Positions 9,067-34,229 of a stretch of DNA of 34,229 nt are shown here, piece after piece. The translations under genes and the position numbers were made by a program. The notes beneath the pieces are model-generated. The model did not search any database. It was given only the letters and a program-made list of their open reading frames with translations, and was not told where the DNA came from. Source of the stretch: Desulfobacterales bacterium (GTDB taxonomy: Bacteria > Desulfobacterota > Desulfobacteria > Desulfobacterales > B30-G6); NCBI GenBank assembly GCA_029939655.1, contig JAOZSO010000001.1, positions 1-34,229 on the forward strand, given 5' to 3'. Every line of letters begins with the position of its first letter. Position 1 is the stretch's first letter.

Positions 9067-11715
9067 ATGAAAAATCTCTTCAAAACAATTTTGCATGATC
9101 GCCATGTCGACCTGGGTGCCCAGATGGTCGAATTCGGGGGCTGGGTCATGCCCATACAGTATCCACAGGGAATTGTCCGGGAACACCTTGCAACAAGACG
9201 GCATGCCGGTCTTTTTGATGTGTCGCATATGGGCCGATTCACTCTCCGTGGTCAGGATGCGCTGCCGTTTTTACAGCATGTCCTTTCCAACAATGCCGTC
9301 GGACTTGAGGAGGGAGAAAGTCAGTATACCTTGATTCCAAATGATCGCGGCGGCGCCATCGACGATGCCTATCTCTATCGCTTTCATGCAGATGAATACC
9401 TGCTGGTGGTCAATGCCGGCAACCGTCTCAAAGACTGGGATCACTTTCAGTCATCTCTGCCTGATTTCAAAAATGTCATCATGGAGGATAAAACCAAAGA
9501 CATATCCATGCTGAGCCTGCAGGGATCGACTTCCAAAGACATACTTCAAAAGATAATGGACACCGGCGCTCTTCCGGAACCCATGCGAAACCATCTCAGC
9601 ATTGCCACCATTCAAGGTAGAAAAGTATTGATCGCGCGCACGGGATACACCGGGGAACCCCTCTGCTTTGAACTGTTCATCGACAGTGCTGACACACCCG
9701 GTATCTGGGATCTGCTGATGGATCAGGGCGCCCACCCTGTTGGACTGGGTGCGCGGGACACTCTCAGACTTGAAGCAGGTCTTCCGCTGTACGGACACGA
9801 ACTGGGAATGGATCCGGACAATAAGGAAATCCCGATCTACGCGTCGCCTCTGTCAAGGTTTGCTGTGAGTCTGTCTCCTTTAAAAAAAGACTTCATCGGT
9901 CGAAATGCCCTTGAAAAGCAATTTGAAGCATTTAAAAAAATTGCTGACCGGGACTATTCCCTCATTCATGACCTCCCTCGCTGCATCATGCCGGTGGCAT
10001 TGAAAAAAAAGAGCGTAGCCCGTGCCGGATACAAGGTTTTTCAGGGTAATCGTCATGTCGGATATGTCACCAGCGGCACCATGATTCCGAGATGGGAGAT
10101 CGAGGGAGAAGGCATCTTCTCGAAATTGACCGAGAATCATGGTCTCAGAGGAATCTGCCTGGCACTGGTAGACAGCACGCTGGTGGAAGGCGACGACATC
10201 GAGATCGAAATCCGGTCAAAACAGGTGCCGGCGGTTATCGTTCCCTTTCATATGCGAAGCGAAGCACCGCCCTTTGCCAGGTCTATCCCCTGGGACAGGA
10301 TTGGGCAGGAAAAGGGACCGTCAGGAAAAGAGGAAATATCCAAAAACGTTCAATCTCTTCTCATAAAATCGATTCGAAATACAGAATGGCGGCAAAAGGA
10401 GTGCATCAACCTCATCCCGTCAGAACAGACCCAGTCCGAACTCATACGCTTGCTCTCCATCATGGACCCCTGCGGACGGTATGCTGAACACAAGCAGGTA
10501 AGTGCATTCAGTGAAGCCGAGGTTTTTTATTACCAGGGAACCGATTTCATTGCCGAAGTCGAGGCAAAACTCGAAACAGAGTTAAAAAAGTTTTTTGGGT
10601 GTCAGCAGGTCGAAACCCGACTGGTCTCGGGCCAGATGGCCAATATGGCCCTGTTCAGCGCACTGGTGGACTATATCAATCGAGCCGACCGGAAAAGTGA
10701 GCAACGACGACTCAGGAAAGTGATGAACAACCATATCATCAAAGGCGGCCATCTGAGTGCACAGCCCATGGGAGCGTTGAGAGACTTTGTGGCCCGGGAC
10801 CCCTTGTCTGAAAAACCGGCTGTGGTAAACTTTCCGGTCCTGCCCGAGAACCCCTATAAAATTGACCTGAGTGCCTGCGAGACTCTCATCCAAAAACATG
10901 AACCGGAACTTATTATCTTTGGCAAAAGTATGGTCCTCCACAAGGAGCCCGTCACAGAAGTTCGTCGAATAATCAATGGTCTGGGAATTGATTCGGTTAT
11001 CATGTACGATATGGCTCACGTTCTGGGCCTGGTAGGCCCCCACTTTCAGGAGCCATTTAAAGAAGGAGCGGATTTCATAACAGGATCTACCCATAAAACC
11101 TTTTTCGGGACACAACGGGGTATCATCGGCACGGATATCACGGATGAAGACCCCCGGTTCGAACTGTGGGAAGCCGTAAAACGCCGGGCATTCCCCGGAA
11201 GTGTCAGCAATCATCACCTGGGAACGATTTTAGGACTCCTGATGGCGACATACGAGATGAACCATTTCAAAGATGAATACCCTAAAAAAGTGCTCGACAA
11301 TGCACGCGTCTTCGCCAAAGCATTGAACGACTGCGGATTGAGCGTGGCCGGCGATCCGGAAATCTCTTTTACAGAAACCCACCAGGTTATACTCAACGTC
11401 GGCTATGCAAAGGGGCCTGCGATCGCCAGGAAACTGGAAGAGAACAACCTCATCGTCAACTACCAGGCAGCCCCGGTGGAAGAAGGTTTTACGGCTTCCG
11501 GATCTCTTCGCATGGGTGTACAGGAAATGACACGTTTTGGCATGGAGGCTACGGATTTCGAAGAACTGGCGCAATTCTTCAAGGATGTTCTGGTGGATAA
11601 CCGGACCGTCAAGGAAGCCGTTATATCGTTTCGAAACCGTTTTTTAGAGATGAAATACTGTTTTACAACGGATCAGGTCGGTGATAAAATCCAGAAATTG
11701 CATGAACTACTATAA
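9067..11715 (+). CDS. gcvT: Fusion protein: glycine-cleavage T protein (aminomethyltransferase) N-terminal half plus serine hydroxymethyltransferase-like PLP domain C-terminal half
   Basis: Residues 1 to about 420 are GcvT-like (HAGLFDVSHMGRF, EYLLVVNAGN, GARDTLRLEAGLPLYGHEL). Residues about 440-882 are SHMT-like (NLIPSEQ, VSGQMANMALF, YDMAHVLGLVG, PLP-lysine motif GSTHKTFFGTQRG). It is a single uninterrupted 882-aa ORF with an AAGGAG SD. Confidence 0.85.
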   Translation: MKNLFKTILHDRHVDLGAQMVEFGGWVMPIQYPQGIVREHLATRRHAGLFDVSHMGRFTLRGQDALPFLQHVLSNNAVGLEEGESQYTLIPNDRGGAIDDAYLYRFHADEYLLVVNAGNRLKDWDHFQSSLPDFKNVIMEDKTKDISMLSLQGSTSKDILQKIMDTGALPEPMRNHLSIATIQGRKVLIARTGYTGEPLCFELFIDSADTPGIWDLLMDQGAHPVGLGARDTLRLEAGLPLYGHELGMDPDNKEIPIYASPLSRFAVSLSPLKKDFIGRNALEKQFEAFKKIADRDYSLIHDLPRCIMPVALKKKSVARAGYKVFQGNRHVGYVTSGTMIPRWEIEGEGIFSKLTENHGLRGICLALVDSTLVEGDDIEIEIRSKQVPAVIVPFHMRSEAPPFARSIPWDRIGQEKGPSGKEEISKNVQSLLIKSIRNTEWRQKECINLIPSEQTQSELIRLLSIMDPCGRYAEHKQVSAFSEAEVFYYQGTDFIAEVEAKLETELKKFFGCQQVETRLVSGQMANMALFSALVDYINRADRKSEQRRLRKVMNNHIIKGGHLSAQPMGALRDFVARDPLSEKPAVVNFPVLPENPYKIDLSACETLIQKHEPELIIFGKSMVLHKEPVTEVRRIINGLGIDSVIMYDMAHVLGLVGPHFQEPFKEGADFITGSTHKTFFGTQRGIIGTDITDEDPRFELWEAVKRRAFPGSVSNHHLGTILGLLMATYEMNHFKDEYPKKVLDNARVFAKALNDCGLSVAGDPEISFTETHQVILNVGYAKGPAIARKLEENNLIVNYQAAPVEEGFTASGSLRMGVQEMTRFGMEATDFEELAQFFKDVLVDNRTVKEAVISFRNRFLEMKYCFTTDQVGDKIQKLHELL

Positions 11716-17631: not shown

Positions 17632-19068
17632 TTATATTTCACATTCATTTATAATTGCTTCCATTGCATCTTCTGCTCCTTCTGGTAAAGCCATCGGCTT
17701 GTGGTTCTTGATAAGAAATCTGGCTTTTTCATACGCCCTTTCGATAATGTCTTTCCCACCGATTTTTTTAACCCAGGTATCGCGGTCCATACAATCAAAC
17801 AAATCTCTTTGGGACATGCTTTTCATGTGTTTTAGTGTGTGTTTGCTAGATAAATATTCACCACCAGAGCTTACGCTTTGAATTGTTTCTAAAGCTATTG
17901 TCTCATCAGAAATGTCCATCCCATTTTTTATCCATTTTAAATTCCTTAATTGTTCAGCATCCAGAATCAGCTTTGCAAAATCAAACGTCAGTCCTGATTC
18001 AATAGAACCACATCCATAGATGACATTAGATCCGGCCAGTAATGCTATAGCCGTATTTGTGTTAAATTCATAAGCGGCCTGTACATCCATAAGTTTACTT
18101 CCGCTAACACCTGAACCACACCAACTTGGGATTCCATAATATTGCGCCATTTTTGCAGTCCCAACATTCAAAACACCACATTCTGGGGCAGCGACAGCAG
18201 GATTACCGAGTTTCAAATCCATAATTGTTCCCACACTACCATAAATGAAAGGTGTACTTTTTGAAGTAAGTTGGGTCAAAACTAAAGAACCAAGAAGTTC
18301 TGCATTCTGTACAACCAGGGTTCCAGCGATTGTCGTGGGCGCCGTAGCACCACTCAATGGCATCGTAATTGAACAAACCACAACACCTAATCTTGAGCAT
18401 TCTATAATGACATCACAGCAATTCTTAGAGAGTGTGAGTGGGCTAGTTGGGCAAACGGTGGTGGACACACAAGGACGCTTAATAAAATTCTCCATGCCAC
18501 CGACGCAGGCCGCTGCCATCTCAACAATCTTTATTGAGTTTCTCCCACTAAAAAAACCATGAAAGGCATGCTTACTTGTGTTTGAAACAATTGCTTCGTA
18601 ATTATGCATGGACTGCGTCTCGGCAGGCTTATCCCGTGATCCCATACATTTTTCAATAATTGCAAATTCATCTAACGCATCAGCCAATCGTGTTGCATCC
18701 CCTAAATCTTTCTTTGTACAAGTTCTGTGTTTTAAAGTGTAAAGGTCGTTAGTATAAGAATTTTCACCAAATAGTGTATAGCAGGAACTTCCAGGTTCGA
18801 TAAGATGATCGTGTTTGGGATCCCTTCCATACAAAACAAACCGTTCTGGTGCCCATTGAACACAATCACTAACTACGGATGGAGGAATCTTAACAACAAA
18901 ACAATCCCCCTTTTTAACAATCTCCGATCCAGCACCATGAAAGATCTCTGTTGCCTCATCTGACTCAATTTTTATCCCCGTATTTTCCAATATCTTAATA
19001 GATGCATGATGAATTCTATGAAGTTGTTCATTTGTAATCCCTTCTATTTGATATCCGAGCATATACAT
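17632..19068 (-). CDS. MttB-superfamily (COG5598) methyltransferase, non-pyrrolysine paralogue; probable quaternary-amine:corrinoid methyltransferase
   Basis: 478 aa, uninterrupted. It is colinear with the Pyl-type mttB below (CPTSPL, MPLSGATAPTTIAGTLVVQNAELLG, APECG). A sense Val codon (18106-18108) sits where mttB has TAG. Confidence 0.85.
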   Translation of the reverse strand: MYMLGYQIEGITNEQLHRIHHASIKILENTGIKIESDEATEIFHGAGSEIVKKGDCFVVKIPPSVVSDCVQWAPERFVLYGRDPKHDHLIEPGSSCYTLFGENSYTNDLYTLKHRTCTKKDLGDATRLADALDEFAIIEKCMGSRDKPAETQSMHNYEAIVSNTSKHAFHGFFSGRNSIKIVEMAAACVGGMENFIKRPCVSTTVCPTSPLTLSKNCCDVIIECSRLGVVVCSITMPLSGATAPTTIAGTLVVQNAELLGSLVLTQLTSKSTPFIYGSVGTIMDLKLGNPAVAAPECGVLNVGTAKMAQYYGIPSWCGSGVSGSKLMDVQAAYEFNTNTAIALLAGSNVIYGCGSIESGLTFDFAKLILDAEQLRNLKWIKNGMDISDETIALETIQSVSSGGEYLSSKHTLKHMKSMSQRDLFDCMDRDTWVKKIGGKDIIERAYEKARFLIKNHKPMALPEGAEDAMEAIINECEI

Positions 19069-19134: not shown

Positions 19135-19788
19135 TTATTCAACGCTAAGCAATTCTTTAATTTTTTCTACGCCATCTTGAGCATTTTTTGCATACGCATC
19201 AGCTCCAATTCTCGCGGCCCAACGGGGAGTTACCGGTGCACCGCCGACAACTGTTTTAAAGCGATCTTTTAATCCTTCAGATTTAAGCACAACTTCTAGG
19301 TCCTTCTGTCGCGGCATGGTTGTGGTAAGCAGCGCGCTGGTACCAATAATATCCGCATCAATCTCTATGGCTGTTTCAATTATTTGCTGGGTGGCCACAT
19401 CCCTCCCTGCATCATGGACCTTAAATCCATTTGCTTGCATCAGTGAAACAACAATGCATTTTCCAATATCATGAACGTCACCCTGGACTGTAGCAATAAG
19501 AACTGTCCCTTTTTCTTGCTTAGCGTTAATCCCGCCACTTAAAGTTTCATTCACCATGTCGGTAACCACCTTCATGATTTCCGCAGCTTGTATAAGCTCT
19601 GGTAAAAACAACCTGCCGCGTCCAAACAAGTCACCCGTTGCGTTAATTCCTGGAATAAAACCTTCCTCCATCAGTTCCAGTGGGCTGCCCCCATCACTGA
19701 GATAATTTTTTACGATCTCAATGGCCCTGTCTTTGTTTGCTTTAATTAGAACTTCCGCCGTTTCTTCGATAATACTTTTATCGATCAT
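19135..19788 (-). CDS. Corrinoid (cobalamin-binding) methyl-carrier protein, MtbC/MttC-like
   Basis: 217 aa. B12-binding DxHxxG motif GDVHDIGK, plus SALLTTT and GGA elements. An N-terminal helical cap domain is present. Confidence 0.9.
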   Translation of the reverse strand: MIDKSIIEETAEVLIKANKDRAIEIVKNYLSDGGSPLELMEEGFIPGINATGDLFGRGRLFLPELIQAAEIMKVVTDMVNETLSGGINAKQEKGTVLIATVQGDVHDIGKCIVVSLMQANGFKVHDAGRDVATQQIIETAIEIDADIIGTSALLTTTMPRQKDLEVVLKSEGLKDRFKTVVGGAPVTPRWAARIGADAYAKNAQDGVEKIKELLSVE

Positions 19789-19847
19789 AGCTTTTTTCCT
19801 TTTCCCTAATAGGCATTAATAGAATGCTTGAGGTTTTGAATCCAGCC

Positions 19848-21221
19848 CTAACGTCTGAAACGGTTTAGGGAATTAATTTCAATATCCAACAGTTTTGCAA
19901 TATTATATTTTGCTTCAATGCCTTTTGGAGAACCCATGGTGGAATAGACACTCCCTATCTTATGGTCTTCTCTAACATCACTCATCACAGCAGCATCAGT
20001 AAGCTCATTAACACTAATTCCTAATTTGTCCGCCACATACTTTTTTGCATCTTTTATTTTCATAGCCCGGGTCATTTGCATGCGTGCGACCAGATCTCCG
20101 GAAGTACGCATTCCGCCCATGCCTGCGGCCATTGCATGTGGTATCGCCACCCCTGCGGGGTCTCCGTCGCCAACCTACAACCCGTCCAATCGTGTAATCT
20201 CTAAATGTGCCTTTGAAGCCATGGTCACTGCGTCAATCGGTGGTGTATAACACAATGGTAAACCGCCCACCCCCATTCCTAAATTCGCATGTACAGGAAT
20301 TTCAGCAGCGTCAACACAGGCTTTTGTGAATGTAACCGCACGTGCAATGTTCCAGGGAATAGACTCGGTAGGATCTGTATTTATCGCTGGTCCGAATATG
20401 TCCACACCAGCTTCTTGCGCGACCTTAACCTGTTCGTGGGGATAGAGCCCGGCAAGGCGTACACCGTTGTGAGAAATCTCCCCATGCATTCCCAAGATAA
20501 ATTCCCCGGCCATTCCGATTTCGACACACATACTTGGGTACTTCTCCTTCAGCTCCTGCACCGCTAATAATGTTGCTTTAAAATCAGGATCACCAGAACC
20601 CCCAACCGTATCGAAATTTATCCCATCCGCTCCAGCTTCAAATAGGGAGGATGATACATAAACCATATCACGAACAGAATGCTCGATAGCTTCATCGTAT
20701 GCATCACGCGCTTCTTTGATTTTTCCCTGAGGAATCAGTTCTGCCGGGTTGGTGACAGGCCCATCCGGTTTGGTGTAAAGACCGAGATTTGGCATTGATC
20801 CATAAAAGACAGGAGCCACCATGAGCAATTGTGCTTGCTCCATGAGAGGAACATTTTCTCGAACGATGTGTTTTGCTTGCTTGAAGCTGTAATCGAGGTC
20901 TGATAGCTCAGTGGTGTCAGCTCCGAAACAACGCTCATAGGTCTGAAGCACTTGTAAGCGACCGGTATTTATGCCAAGCCTTCCGATCTTATTGCTTCCA
21001 CCATCATAGGTCATTATAACCTCATACCCTTTTTCAACCCCTGATATGCTACAACTGCATTTGCATATTTCAAACAAATGTTTTCGTTCATCATCAGTGA
21101 GAGGCTGTATCTCTGCCCGATCTGCGGCATCCAGGGTTCCATCTTCAATGTCTTGAATTAGTTCTTTTTCATCTATCTCAACAGAAAAACCATCTCCCAT
21201 GCGGGTTATTACTTTGCTCAT
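19848..21221 (-). CDS. mtbB: Dimethylamine:corrinoid methyltransferase with an in-frame UAG (predicted pyrrolysine) at 20175-20177
   Basis: Track ORFs 20175..21221 and 19848..20150 are in the same frame. Translation across the gap reads [42 protein letters not shown], and the TAG is the only stop. The combined 457 codons are colinear with Methanosarcina MtbB (about 467 aa) along the whole length. AAGGAGG SD precedes the ATG at 21221. Confidence 0.9.
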
Positions 21222-21235
21222 TTAGTCCTCCTTTA

Positions 21236-22702
21236 TTATATTCCTAATTCCTTTTCCGCTTCCTCCACAATTGAGTGAATTCTCTTTTGGATATCATCCG
21301 CTATTGGATCAGGAGTATGAGTCTCCAGAATTTCTATGGCTTTCTCCGTTGCTTTTTTGTATATATCCGGCTTGCCGGCTTGTTCCCAATCTTCACGCAT
21401 CGTTCGGTCAAAAACTCTGGGCGCAGATATAGATCTCATGTGGCGTAGCGTGCTATCATGGCTGAGGAAGTCTTTCCCGATTCCAATTTCTTTTATAGCA
21501 TCCACAGCCAGGGTTTCATCATTTACCGCTATCCCGTTCACCACATGCCTGACCATTTGTGCAACTTCATTATCCAACACAAGTTGTCCAAAATCAAAGG
21601 TCATTCCCATCTCGATCATTCCCATGCCGTATATCAGGTTGGCCCCTGCCAACGCCGGCAATAACGACGTCATCGTTTTTTCATGACCGGTTTGGAAATC
21701 TGTAGCTTTTGTATCGCCCTACCCGCCGGCAACAAAGCTTGGCAATGCATAATAACGAGCCAATCTCGCAACAGCCGCACTGATCATTGCGCATTCTGGG
21801 GATCCCACCGATGCGCTCGCCATTCTTAAATCCATGGCTGTCGTCGAACTGCCGTATATGACCGGTCCACCCTTTATAGTGAGCTGGTTAAGCAAAATTC
21901 CAGATAGAATTTCGGCGTTATGGATTACCAATGTCCCGGCAAGTGTTACCGGAGACGAGCCTCCCGCCATTGCCATGGAGAGAATATTGACACCGATTCC
22001 GTGTCTAGCTGCCCCCATGATGACTTCACAGGTATCTTTAACCAATTTAAGCGGGCTCACCGGACAAGTGATCGTTGTGTAGATGGGTCTCTGCCTTAAC
22101 GCATCCTTGCCACCAGCGATTACGGTAGCCATTTCCACTATTTTATCGAGTTGGTAACCTGAAAATGCTCCCATGAAAAGGTGTTTACTTGTATTGTTGA
22201 ATGAATCTTCCGCATTATAAATCTGGGCAATTTCCTGAGGAACTTCATGTGCTCCAACGGCCCGTTCATAGACATCGATCTCGCTCAGATAGTCAGCCAA
22301 CTTGGCTGCATTGGCCACATCTTTTCTGGTGGGCTTTCTTCTTTCACCCGTGTAGGGATCGATTACAAAAACGCCCTCTCCAAAAGTAGTAAACCCGACT
22401 CTATTGCTTTCTAATATGGTATCGTTTTTTGGATTGCGACCTGCCAGAAAGAGCTTTGGCGGAGCACTGCGAATGGCATCTTCCACTATATATGGAGGAA
22501 TTTTTACGATTTTCTTTTTTGCATTAACGGCGGCACCACCACCATCAAAAATATCCAGAGCTTCCTCATCTTCAACAAATATTCCAGTTTTCTCAAGAAT
22601 CTCTAATGTTGCCAAATGAATTTCGTCGCACTCCTCTTCAGTAAATGAATTTAGGCCGAATCCGCCACTGAGCTTCTTCCCTGCATGTAGGTTTCGCTTC
22701 AT
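21236..22702 (-). CDS. mttB: Trimethylamine:corrinoid methyltransferase with an in-frame UAG (predicted pyrrolysine) at 21719-21721
   Basis: Track ORFs 21719..22702 and 21236..21673 are in the same frame. Translation reads [45 protein letters not shown]. The combined 488 codons are colinear with Methanosarcina MttB (about 495 aa), and the TAG is the only interruption. Confidence 0.9.
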
Positions 22703-22790: not shown

Positions 22791-22822
22791 CTGGAGCCTT
22801 GTTATTAACAACAAGGCTCCAG
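22791..22822 (-). terminator. Probable intrinsic terminator hairpin after the solute-binding-protein gene
   Basis: Perfect 13-bp stem ctggagccttgtt / aacaaggctccag with a 6-nt loop, beginning 6 nt after the TAA stop. On the minus strand it is followed by UUCUUCUAUG, a partial U-tract. Confidence 0.55.
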
Positions 22823-22828
22823 CTTTGA

Positions 22829-24412
22829 TTATGCAAACCACCATCGTTCATGGATTCTACGACCGTCATACATGGCATTGGAGGCAATGGTGTTATACCT
22901 CAATTTACTGCTTGCTACATAAACAAAGTTACTAAAAATGGGAATGATTGAGGAACCTTCATCATGGACAATTTTTTGCATTTCCCAATACATATCGCGA
23001 CGCTTGACTTCATTCAGCTCAGATCGAGCCTCTTTGAGGAGCTTGTCGAATCGTGCATTCTTCCAATAGCTCTCATTCCAGTTTGCTGATCCAGCATATA
23101 CAAGCGATAACATCCAGTCTTCTGTGGGCCGACCATACCAGAAACTCCAGCACATGCCTTTCTTCATCCATACATCCTCCCAATAACCGTCATTCGGTAC
23201 CTTTTTAGTCTTGAGTTTCACTCCTGCTTTTTCGGCAGACTCTTGGAATAAGAGAGCCGAGTCTATTGCCCCGGCAAAAGCTGTATCAGCGGCATAAAGC
23301 TCGAAAGTATGATCTAACATACCGGCTTTCTTCAAGTAAAATTTAGCCTTATCCGGATCATAAGTCCTCTGAGGCAATTCAGAGTTGAAATATCGGTTCT
23401 TCTGTGAGATTGGATGATCGTTTCCAAGAGAACCGTAACCACGTAAAACCTGTTTTAACATCAACTCACGATCAAAAGCGTATTTTAATCCCAATCGGAC
23501 ATTATTATCATTGAAGGGCTTCTGGGTCGTCAACATAGGCATGGTATAGTGGGCATACCCTGGAACGTCTATAATTTGCACATTTTTATTCTTTTTCAGA
23601 AATTGAACCGTCTTAAGATCAGGTCGGGCAAATACATCTAATTCGCCGGTTACTACAGCAGAGGTCCTGGATACGACATCCGGTAAGGCCATCGTTTCAA
23701 CTTCATCAAAATAGGGAAGTCCCTCCTTGAAATAATTTGGGTTACGCGTAGTGAAAGCCCGGACACCTGGCTCCCAACTTTTAAGGATAAAGGGGCCTGT
23801 TCCCATCCCTTTTTCAAAATCGGTTGTCCCGTTTGGTACGACCATAAGATTCACTTCTGCCAAGAAATAGGGGAAGTCGGCATTCCCTGATTCAAGTGTG
23901 AAGATCACCTGGTTGTTACCATCTTTCTTTATGTCCGTAACAGGCTTAAGAATACCTTTTGCCGGAGATTTGGTCTTTTCGGTTCTACTAAGATTTATGG
24001 AATAGATAACGTCATCAGCATCCAGCGGCTTGCCGTTATGAAATTCGACGCCTTTTCGGAGGTTGAAAATCCATTGTTTTGCATCCGGTGTTGACTCCCA
24101 GTTTTCCGCAAGCTCCGGGGTAGCAACACCTTTTTCATCAATTACAATCAACTGGTTTCGACATTGTTGACTGACCAATTGAGGCATAATATCTGTCAAC
24201 AATGTGATATCTAGGCTCTCTGTTGTGGCACCACTGTGGCTCCCAATTCTCAAGCGGCCACCCTGTTTGGGGGTTGCGGCATGTGCTGTGCTATTAGCCA
24301 ATAAAGGCGACATAGCCACAGAAAGCCCCATAGCAGACACGTAGGCTAAGAAATCGCGGCGAGTAATTTTCCCTTGAAATAGCAAACGTTCCAACTCCTG
24401 CAATTTTTCCAT
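22829..24412 (-). CDS. ABC-transporter substrate-binding protein, family 5 (peptide/opine/nickel type), with a Tat-type signal peptide
   Basis: 527 aa. Twin-arginine motif TRRDFLAYVSAMGLSVAM...AHA. The length and sequence character are those of DppA/OppA-like SBPs. AAGGAGG SD is present. Confidence 0.8.
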   Translation of the reverse strand: MEKLQELERLLFQGKITRRDFLAYVSAMGLSVAMSPLLANSTAHAATPKQGGRLRIGSHSGATTESLDITLLTDIMPQLVSQQCRNQLIVIDEKGVATPELAENWESTPDAKQWIFNLRKGVEFHNGKPLDADDVIYSINLSRTEKTKSPAKGILKPVTDIKKDGNNQVIFTLESGNADFPYFLAEVNLMVVPNGTTDFEKGMGTGPFILKSWEPGVRAFTTRNPNYFKEGLPYFDEVETMALPDVVSRTSAVVTGELDVFARPDLKTVQFLKKNKNVQIIDVPGYAHYTMPMLTTQKPFNDNNVRLGLKYAFDRELMLKQVLRGYGSLGNDHPISQKNRYFNSELPQRTYDPDKAKFYLKKAGMLDHTFELYAADTAFAGAIDSALLFQESAEKAGVKLKTKKVPNDGYWEDVWMKKGMCWSFWYGRPTEDWMLSLVYAGSANWNESYWKNARFDKLLKEARSELNEVKRRDMYWEMQKIVHDEGSSIIPIFSNFVYVASSKLRYNTIASNAMYDGRRIHERWWFA

Positions 24413-32804: not shown

Positions 32805-34229
32805 CTAAAAAGTGCTTCCTGCTCGATGGATTTCAATCAGCTCGCCGAAGTCGTTCAAAGATTTTTCTATGCATTCCAACAATAGTGTGGTCTCACGAGT
32901 TTTACTGGTAGCATTCACGACGATGTGATTCTCATGGATAACGTAACCAAGTCCGTAACCCTCAGGGTCCACTGGCCCGAAACCAACTAAGCCAATGGAC
33001 GGCGAACGCAGACCGCTGGTAGAGAGTATGACTCGGTCCAGAATCTCGGCGGTAGCACCAGCGCGGAACAGTGGATGTTCTCGGCCGCTGAGTTCCGACA
33101 AGGTCCGGAGTGCAAACAGATGGCGATCAAAACCCTGGCCGCTACTGCAATCCTTTATCAGTTGAACGTGTCGGTGGGCTGCCAGGTCCAACAACGCCCA
33201 TTGATCAGACCGGGATGCGGCATTGTCAAAACCGGTGACCAGTTCGAGAGATTCAGGTGTTACCGTCCGGATAGCACTTCCGCGCCCGAACTTGTATTTG
33301 CGGGTATTGACCGATTCATAGGCGCTGTACAATCTATCAAAACGGCGAAAACAGCCCATCTGAAAGGCAAGTTGTAAAATTACATCTGGGCTGAAACCGT
33401 TGCCTGCGATATGGTTCTTACCGAAACGTTTGTACGATAGCACACGGGTTTCATTTTCCCCGATCAGCGTATCTACATCTGTTTCGGCTGTGCGGATAGC
33501 CGATATGATAGTCGGTGGCAACCGCCAATGAATCTCTTCAACATTTTTGCTATTGAAGAGTTCAGTTGATCCGGTAGAAGGATCATCGGCCAAATCATGG
33601 CTAAGTCCAGTATGGATTTCATCAATGAAGCGCACGGCAGTGAGACCGTCCACAAGGGTGTGCTCGGTGTTGACACCAAAGGATCCGTCAGCGGCCAGAA
33701 TGACCTGAATTGGTTTGTCGAACCAGCGGTTGCGGCCGTCGCCGTGCAGCACCATTCTAGAAAGCTCCGCCAGATCCCGTGGTGCCGATTCTTCGAGGCA
33801 CAGAACAAACAGGGCACTATCAACTAGAGATAAAGAATCCTGGTTGAGAACATCAAAGGCAGCCAAACAGCTGCGCCAGACAGCCCAATCGGTGCGGTTA
33901 GCGCTGGTCATCACCCCAACCGACCCGATCGAAGAGTCTTTTAATGTCGGGCTATCGGCGACATCAATGATCCATTGCAATGCGTTTTCCAATTCCGCTT
34001 GCGGCAAGGGTTGCCCGTGCACATCAAGGATATTCAAACGAAAAAACCGATTACGGTGTAAAACGACGATGTGGCGTGTAAGCGCAAAAGTGACAAATTG
34101 ATCCATTCGAATGTGAGGAATCCGACCTGAGGAAAACATCGTCTTGTATTGGGACATGCACCGGGGCACATCCTTTTGCACGTCGGGCGGAAGGCGGTCC
34201 AGAACCTTGCCGACCCGCGTATTCAGTCG
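32805..34229 (-). CDS. Choline/carnitine O-acyltransferase family protein (PF00755-like); N-terminus lies outside the window
   Basis: Family motifs are present in order: CMSQYKTMFSSGRIP, NRWFDKPIQ, catalytic-His motif NTEHTLVDG, LSTSGL and FGPVDPEGYGLGY. The frame stays open to nt 34229, and the GTG at 34181 is internal. TAG stop. Confidence 0.8.
   Translation of the reverse strand, partial: RLNTRVGKVLDRLPPDVQKDVPRCMSQYKTMFSSGRIPHIRMDQFVTFALTRHIVVLHRNRFFRLNILDVHGQPLPQAELENALQWIIDVADSPTLKDSSIGSVGVMTSANRTDWAVWRSCLAAFDVLNQDSLSLVDSALFVLCLEESAPRDLAELSRMVLHGDGRNRWFDKPIQVILAADGSFGVNTEHTLVDGLTAVRFIDEIHTGLSHDLADDPSTGSTELFNSKNVEEIHWRLPPTIISAIRTAETDVDTLIGENETRVLSYKRFGKNHIAGNGFSPDVILQLAFQMGCFRRFDRLYSAYESVNTRKYKFGRGSAIRTVTPESLELVTGFDNAASRSDQWALLDLAAHRHVQLIKDCSSGQGFDRHLFALRTLSELSGREHPLFRAGATAEILDRVILSTSGLRSPSIGLVGFGPVDPEGYGLGYVIHENHIVVNATSKTRETTLLLECIEKSLNDFGELIEIHRAGSTF

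Follow-up and report, generated by a model that had tools for sequence, protein, structure and literature searches.

The dimethylamine methyltransferase genes mtbB1, mtbB2 and mtbB3 of Methanosarcina barkeri contain amber codons whose placement is conserved within each methyltransferase family, and pyrrolysine (Pyl) has been found in MtbB by mass spectrometry (PMC2933860). Bacterial examples have also been described. The delta-1 symbiont of Olavius algarvensis carries UAG-bearing mtbB and mttB genes, some of them clustered, along with pylT, pylSn, pylSc and pylBCD (Zhang and Gladyshev 2007, PMC1976440). Marine Deltaproteobacteria that use both Pyl and selenocysteine, Guaymas Basin genomes included, are the subject of Kivenson et al. 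2021 (PMC8318568), a study that presents a Pyl-type MtbB and a trimethylamine methyltransferase (MttB) of 485 residues in which Pyl is residue 327. Here we analyse a gene of this kind in a stretch of 34,229 nucleotides (nt) of Desulfobacterales DNA (assembly GCA_029939655.1, contig JAOZSO010000001.1; hereafter the window). The gene lies on the minus strand from 21221 to 19848 and is interrupted by one in-frame TAG. We think it very probable that this locus is a single functional mtbB gene with a product of about 457 residues, and we hold with high confidence that Pyl is inserted at its UAG, codon 349, so that full-length MtbB is made. The evidence suggests that the host is an uncultured Desulfobacterales-type bacterium of hydrothermal or marine sediment, related to marine sulfate reducers.

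Between the ATG at 21221 and the stop that ends at 19848, the minus strand holds a single frame of 457 sense positions, broken once by a TAG at 20177-20175 (CTA at 20175-20177 on the plus strand). This TAG takes the place of codon 349 and leaves 108 codons (19851-20174) to be read as the rest of MtbB. The gene's own terminator, at 19850-19848, is also TAG. A Shine-Dalgarno sequence, AGGAGG, can be read at 21227-21232 on the minus strand, 5 nt upstream of the mtbB ATG and inside the 14-nt gap that follows the stop of the preceding gene, mttB. A mechanical list of open reading frames (ORFs) splits the gene into a piece of 348 amino acids (aa; 20175-21221) and a GTG-initiated piece of 100 aa (19848-20150). 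The first-pass annotation of this DNA had observed that the two pieces share one minus-strand frame and are parted by a single TAG, which it numbered codon 349 of 457 in mtbB. The same pieces stand in the ORF list, translation of the frame from 21221 to 19848 confirms the numbering, and the translation across the TAG junction that we recomputed is identical to the one it gave. Were the mtbB terminator itself read through (19786-19850), 13 residues would be added up to a second TAG; read-through of that one would add another six, as far as a TGA overlapping the ATG of the downstream corrinoid protein gene.

An internal stop may simply mark a pseudogene, or an error of sequencing or assembly, in which a chance nonsense mutation or a wrong base call has struck a once-intact gene. 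GenBank and other pipelines do annotate the 348-aa fragment only. However, four independent metagenome contigs (L001-L004) are 100% identical over the N-terminal 348 codons, and all four have the TAG followed by 108 in-frame codons, so that the TAG is not an assembly or sequencing error. A fifth contig (L183) has the 348-aa call and ends at the TAG.

The read-through product, with X at the TAG, belongs to the MtbB family from end to end. It matches Pfam PF09505 (Dimeth_Pyl) with an E-value of 5e-188 and 625.8 bits (cut-off 25), residues 5-456 aligning with profile positions 4-461 of 463, and it matches the NCBIfam equivalog TIGR02368 with 495.3 bits (cut-off 369.1), residues 5-457 aligning with positions 6-464 of 466. 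Both matches cross the TAG, and they bear out the first-pass assignment of the gene as a bacterial dimethylamine methyltransferase. We placed the UAG column by the alignment to the Rfam model RF02509 and by the alignment of homologues. The consensus of RF02509 (UAG AUA GGU GUC GGC GAC CCU AUG GG) translates to O-IGVGDPMG, which reproduces the Methanosarcina motif that the first-pass annotation had quoted; the corresponding motif of the window is O-VGDGDPAG. Its placing of the Methanosarcina Pyl near residue 356 of about 467 agrees in length with the TIGR02368 profile, which has 466 positions and is matched here over 6-464. As a check, the first-pass annotation had proposed asking whether the TAG falls on the UAG column of the family. 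It does: the TAG aligns with model positions 1-3 (UAG), and all 98 homologues have it in the same column.

This count goes back to an MtbB alignment run against a single genome for each GTDB species. The scan gave 80 loci, to which metagenome loci were added. The 80 loci are mostly from metagenome-assembled genomes (MAGs) of Desulfobacterales or other Thermodesulfobacteriota, and the set also includes Dehalococcoidia, Spirochaetota, Clostridia, Natroniella/Halanaerobiaceae (Halanaerobiales) and one Acidobacteriota MAG. The closest homologue, from a Desulfobacterales MAG (JAOZRT01, locus L013), encodes an MtbB with 91% amino-acid identity. The codon in column 349 is TAG in 96 of 96 copies, and in 98 of 98 distinct copies once the metagenome loci are joined. 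These copies span at least five bacterial phyla, and none of the 98 has a sense codon, TAA or TGA at this column. In every homologous copy the frame continues after the TAG for 102-119 conserved codons. The terminal stops of the same 98 genes are TAA in 50, TGA in 25 and TAG in 23. The identity of the stop is therefore free where the codon terminates the protein and fixed where it does not.

The protein diverges equally on the two sides of the TAG. The proportion of nonsynonymous differences (pN), measured against five homologues, is the same before and after it (0.03-0.24 on each side), in line with the earlier statement that similarity continues at an equal level on both sides. Where synonymous divergence (dS) is unsaturated, the ratio of nonsynonymous to synonymous divergence (dN/dS) after the TAG is 0.085 against L013, 0.155 against L016 and 0.079 against L023. 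As judged from these comparisons, purifying selection acts on the 108 codons that follow the TAG, and they are part of the protein. An intact frame under such selection, and a TAG kept in 98 of 98 copies across phyla, are not what a pseudogene would give, and the first-pass view that a random nonsense mutation would not be expected here stands. Moreover, the pattern recurs in the adjacent mttB, at the column specific to that family, and the identities of the homologues (53-91%) exclude a single recently spread pseudogene. On these comparative data we regard a pseudogene or an error as already refuted, with next to no probability left to it.

The same codon misleads gene callers on a large scale. 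Among the best 120 matches in a database of 5.8 billion proteins (59-99% identity), nearly all are exactly 348 aa long and cut at this codon. The GenBank entries RLC06131.1 and RLC16689.1 are this very gene, held as a 348-aa fragment and named '[dimethylamine--corrinoid protein] Co-methyltransferase'. That standard pipelines would fragment the gene had been anticipated in the first-pass annotation.

Could the two fragments be real proteins? A split gene would yield a 348-aa chain that ends at the TAG and a 100-aa chain that starts at the GTG at 20150, and the two chains would assemble with no Pyl involved. The GTG-initiated ORF (19848-20150) does exist, and UAG works as a terminator elsewhere in the window. 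Yet the eight codons that separate the TAG from the GTG (VGDGDPAG) are kept as protein: in 57 diverged sequences their variation falls mostly at third positions. Since protein-level conservation thus covers the whole interval up to the next possible start, we consider a split gene very unlikely. Moreover, the first residues past the TAG belong to the family motif in 98 of 98 copies, and a plain terminator gives no reason for the stop to be always TAG and never TAA or TGA, when these genes end so freely in any of the three stop codons.

In the reading we prefer, a single protein with Pyl at residue 349, the UAG would be read by the amber-suppressor tRNA(Pyl), with anticodon CUA. This tRNA would be charged by a split synthetase, PylSn/PylSc, with pyrrolysine made from lysine by PylB, PylC and PylD, and decoding would compete with termination by release factor. 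The Pyl side chain in the active site of MtbB would bind and activate dimethylamine, and the enzyme would pass one methyl group to the Co(I) form of the corrinoid protein encoded immediately downstream (19788-19135).

Genes for this machinery adjoin mtbB in many relatives. Of the 16 tRNA genes found in loci around mtbB homologues, 15 are tRNA-Pyl(CUA), and PylSc adjoins mtbB in 14 homologue loci. One of these relatives, with an MtbB 72% identical to that of the window (locus L014), has pylT, pylSc, pylC and pylSn adjacent to mtbB. On closer view this cluster (L014 7092-9866) consists of pylT-pylSc, an ORF that matches only positions 63-277 of PylC, and pylSn, and it is set between two mtbB copies. 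Neither PylB nor PylD was found among the 10 ORFs of L014 scanned against NCBIfam, and the cluster may be rearranged or decayed.

For the present organism, a metagenome scan with PylSc recovered a contig (L149; Ga0164315_10002425, JGI sample 3300013099) that encodes pylT together with PylSc, PylB, PylC, PylD and PylSn, all above the NCBIfam cut-offs. The same sample also yields contigs identical to the window. This complete pylT-Sc-B-C-D-Sn cluster, carried by L149 and L173, is on a separate contig from the window locus. An identical PylSc (P0121) occurs in ERZ27227323, ERZ27227324, 3300013099, 3300013101, SRR35107986 and GCA_029935755.1, and six of the six also hold the window locus.

The contig with the pyl cluster has features of its own. 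No methyltransferase gene with a UAG lies within 10 kb of the cluster (L173 1-20840, ERZ27227323 k141_2477731, and L149), and the contig carries two full-length non-Pyl MttB-family genes, a pterin-binding methyltransferase and a corrinoid protein. It also encodes an aldehyde:ferredoxin oxidoreductase 52% identical to that of the window, and a Y1 transposase lies just downstream of pylSn.

Several points weigh against our conclusion, and most concern whether this pyl cluster belongs to the genome of the window. No pylS or pylBCD was found with Pfam and NCBIfam profiles among the ORFs of the window, and no tRNA gene of any kind, pylT included, was found in the window. Longer contigs that hold the locus likewise show no pylT, pylS or pylBCD in the 10 kb to its left and right. 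The source is a metagenome contig and not a closed genome, and the case for one genome, though good, is circumstantial and consists of co-occurrence. Thus the search for pyl genes that the first-pass annotation had recommended came out negative for the window and its 10-kb flanks and positive for a complete cluster on another contig of six of the same assemblies. The tetranucleotide correlation between the pyl contig and the window (r about 0.90-0.92) is compatible with a common origin, though loci from other genomes reach 0.96. The numbering of the GenBank entries (PylSc as RLC04121 and RLC16540; window genes as RLC06124-39, RLC16689-96 and RLC17625-30; known locus tags DRH90_04170 and DRI24_05250) is ambiguous, and the pyl contig could have been binned into a different MAG. 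At least two further pyl clusters (L113 and L125) occur in the same samples. From the side of structure, a search of the PDB for MtbB returned no sequence relative and no solved structure, hence no structural support, and an AlphaFold2 model (11-row alignment A1) has a mean predicted local distance difference test score of 53, below 50 around the Pyl region, and is too poor for use. We infer the actual insertion of Pyl from sequence, and the chemistry and the substrate from the characterised archaeal enzymes (PMC2933860). Finally, UAG ends 4 of the 24 window genes, mtbB included, and read-through is therefore neither fully efficient nor unconditional.

Two attempts to link the genomes were set aside. 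Composition was rejected as a link: the loci that reach 0.96 are from unrelated Desulfobacterales, whereas one half of the window correlates with the other at only 0.77. A link through the sister genome was likewise rejected, since the related PylSc proteins P0132 and P0131 (92% identical) come from other assemblies than the MAG of L013.

The UAG might instead be read through without pyrrolysine, by another suppressor tRNA, by near-cognate decoding (as Gln, Tyr, Lys or Trp) or through a lineage-wide reassignment of the codon. The circumstantial placement of the pyl cluster leaves some room for this, and one database caller did put Q at the UAG of a homologue (P0120). That Q, however, is the product of an alternative-code gene call, and the other members of its cluster are 352-aa fragments. 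Global reassignment is contradicted by the four window genes that end in UAG. Indeed, because of these gene ends, UAG in this organism is, on the sequence, ambiguous rather than reassigned, as has been described for other Pyl-using organisms (PMC1976440, PMC12626013). Against read-through of this kind stand tRNA-Pyl and PylS next to mtbB in many relatives and the complete pyl cluster that co-occurs in six of the same assemblies. We consider read-through without pyrrolysine highly improbable, and decoding of the UAG as Pyl the better account.

The genes around mtbB form a cluster on one strand. On the minus strand the order is a solute-binding protein, mttB (Pyl), a 14-nt gap, mtbB (Pyl), a corrinoid protein and an MttB-family gene that has no UAG. 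The mttB gene (21236-22702, minus strand) has 488 codons and a single in-frame TAG at 21721-21719, codon 328, and public data call it as fragments of 327 aa and 145 aa. Its product, a predicted trimethylamine:corrinoid methyltransferase, scores 755 bits against TIGR02369 (cut-off 525), and the X at its TAG aligns with chain position 334, likewise an X (Pyl), in the solved structure of M. barkeri MttB, PDB 7xcl. The corrinoid (B12-binding) protein, the presumed methyl acceptor for both MtbB and MttB, is encoded at 19135-19788 (minus strand), starts 59 nt after mtbB, matches Pfam B12-binding and B12-binding_2 and is named 'dimethylamine corrinoid protein 3' in GenBank. It scores below the cut-offs of two specific models, with 200 bits against 215 for TIGR02370 (pyl_corrinoid) and 197 against 350 for the MtbC model NF041607. 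The last gene of the cluster (17632-19068, minus strand) encodes an MttB-superfamily methyltransferase (Pfam MTTB, 4.9e-89) with Val at the Pyl column (GSGVSGSK, as compared with AGGXGDTK, in alignment A3). Upstream of mttB, at 22829-24412 on the minus strand, lies the gene of the family-5 solute-binding protein (Pfam SBP_bac_5, 6.9e-75). Taken together, the gene content suggests stepwise demethylation of trimethylamine and dimethylamine, and the pathway probably also covers a quaternary amine.

A perfect 13-bp inverted repeat (CTGGAGCCTTGTT...AACAAGGCTCCAG) stands at 22791-22822, between the solute-binding protein gene and mttB, and may act there as a terminator or an attenuator. On the plus strand, at 9067-11715 and divergently oriented to the methyltransferase genes, lies a gene for an 882-aa protein in which a glycine-cleavage T-protein (GcvT) domain is fused to a serine hydroxymethyltransferase domain. 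It is followed by gcvH, gcvPA, gcvPB, a lipoate ligase and a lipoyl synthase. The window also encodes a sigma-54 activator. At its right end (32805-34229, minus strand; L009 8186-9958) is a protein of the choline/carnitine O-acyltransferase family (PF00755), which reaches 590 aa where contigs are longer; in this bacterial locus it is found close to methyltransferases of the quaternary-amine type. At the right end of the window, the first 11 codons differ from the otherwise identical L009, a difference that may be a contig-end artefact or a strain variant.

We turn to the nucleotide sequence after the UAG. A pyrrolysine insertion sequence (PYLIS) is disputed and is held in the literature not to be essential (PMC2933860). 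Rfam PYLIS_2 (RF02509, 'pyrrolysine insertion sequence mtbB'; 100 nt from the UAG) matches the window at 20078-20177 on the minus strand with 69.4 bits, against a gathering score of 36, and PYLIS_3 matches mttB at 21721-21622. However, PYLIS_3 also matches the MttB homologue that has no UAG (18107-18009, minus strand; 40.5 bits against a threshold of 38), and these Rfam models therefore largely detect coding-sequence homology and not a recoding element. The bacterial sequences lend no support to the large stem-loop (helix 1 of RF02509), which in the 57 diverged copies is 72% paired and cannot be told from shuffled controls. Similarly, the folding energy of the PYLIS region of the window is no better than that of shuffles (z = +0.78).

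One small hairpin fares better. It corresponds to helix 2 of RF02509, lies at UAG+74 to +91 (20087-20104, minus strand) and has 7 bp and the loop AGAU. In the 57 sequences 95.5% of its cells are paired, none of 500 shuffles reached its covariation score, and compensatory changes from C-G to A-U occur at two pairs in two lineages. In the window itself, five of the seven pairs form.

The hairpin lies within a stretch of constrained synonymous sites. Codon identity, normalised by gene-wide codon usage, is 1.7-2.5 at codons about 358-388, some 10-40 codons past the UAG (20058-20150, minus strand), compared with a mean of 1.15 ± 0.21 for mtbB, and all of the top 25 windows of 12 codons in the gene fall within codons 342-388. 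Conservation of amino acids, or selection for codon accuracy, was rejected as the cause, given that the contrast persists at columns where the amino acid is invariant (median 1.65 in codons 342-388 and 1.03 elsewhere; Mann-Whitney p = 2e-6). Several codons are nearly fixed among the 98 copies: UUG348, directly before the UAG (20178-20180), in 92, GGC369 in 90, GGA375 (Gly375) in 98 and CUG377 (Leu377) in 96. The stretch includes GGAGAUCUGG at 20099-20090, which is invariant across phyla (alignment A4). The pattern in mttB is parallel: in 40 Pyl-type copies the top 20 constrained 12-codon windows fall either in codons 318-336, which surround the UAG, or in codons 341-363, which follow it at a distance of 13-35 codons, with a ratio of up to 1.67 against a gene mean of 1.16 ± 0.11. 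That bacterial Pyl genes carry a nucleotide-level recoding signal is nevertheless a tentative idea, to which we give a rather low probability. Such elements would amount to a functional counterpart, in bacteria, of the disputed PYLIS if they adjust how tRNA(Pyl) competes with release factor 1, or if they shield the mRNA during the pause of the ribosome at the UAG. The constraint in mtbB and mttB is the only part of this analysis that reaches past what is known, and we treat it as a lead that stands outside our verdict on the gene. It does offer concrete mutations with which to ask how UAG is read as Pyl or as stop in an organism where UAG still terminates.

The locus has more immediate consequences for annotation and ecology. 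Both mtbB and mttB should be annotated as single Pyl-containing proteins; GenBank now holds mtbB only as its 348-aa fragment, and the same truncation error affects thousands of database entries. The locus also adds a Desulfobacterales-type lineage of hydrothermal or marine sediment to the bacteria probably able to demethylate trimethylamine and dimethylamine. Such bacteria would compete with methylotrophic methanogens for these substrates, an idea already in the literature.

How, then, does this mtbB compare with those described before? With M. barkeri MtbB1-3 it shares the family, a single in-frame UAG at the conserved column, the (V/I)G.GDP motif that follows it and a cognate corrinoid protein encoded alongside. 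It differs in that its host is a bacterium of Desulfobacterales type, its product is about 10 residues shorter and, in the candidate pyl cluster, PylSn and PylSc are separate parts of the synthetase. Unlike the archaeal PYLIS_2 model, bacterial mtbB does not conserve helix 1. The fate of the methyl group presumably differs as well: by the model presented in PMC8318568, it would pass to tetrahydrofolate and be oxidised, and not enter coenzyme M and methanogenesis.

The genomes of that study are from the same ecological and taxonomic group and pose the same annotation problem to standard gene callers, and their MttB, with Pyl at 327 of 485, is closely matched by the mttB of the window, with Pyl at 328 of 488. 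The gene order mttB-mtbB-corrinoid protein-non-Pyl MttB and the synonymous constraint are not, as far as we read it, described in PMC8318568. The O. algarvensis delta-1 symbiont, likened here by its description, is also a marine deltaproteobacterium with UAG-bearing mtbB and mttB, although the present organism is free-living and known from hydrothermal or marine sediment metagenomes. Acetohalobium arabaticum, from a different phylum (Halanaerobiales), is also similar: this bacterium reportedly has Pyl-type methylamine methyltransferase genes, still uses UAG as an ordinary stop codon and decodes it as Pyl conditionally. The non-Pyl MttB superfamily, which includes the glycine betaine methyltransferase of PDB 9yce (the sequence also of 2qne, 'putative methyltransferase'), takes in the 19068-17632 gene, which is full-length and has neither a UAG nor Pyl at the column in question, but not mtbB.

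The novelty that the first-pass annotation saw in a bacterial Pyl-containing dimethylamine methyltransferase was therefore overstated, as a Pyl-containing MtbB from a marine deltaproteobacterium was published in 2007 (PMC1976440). By its sequence, the present mtbB carries every mark of the family; it differs from its known relatives in host and detail only, and is of a kind already well described.

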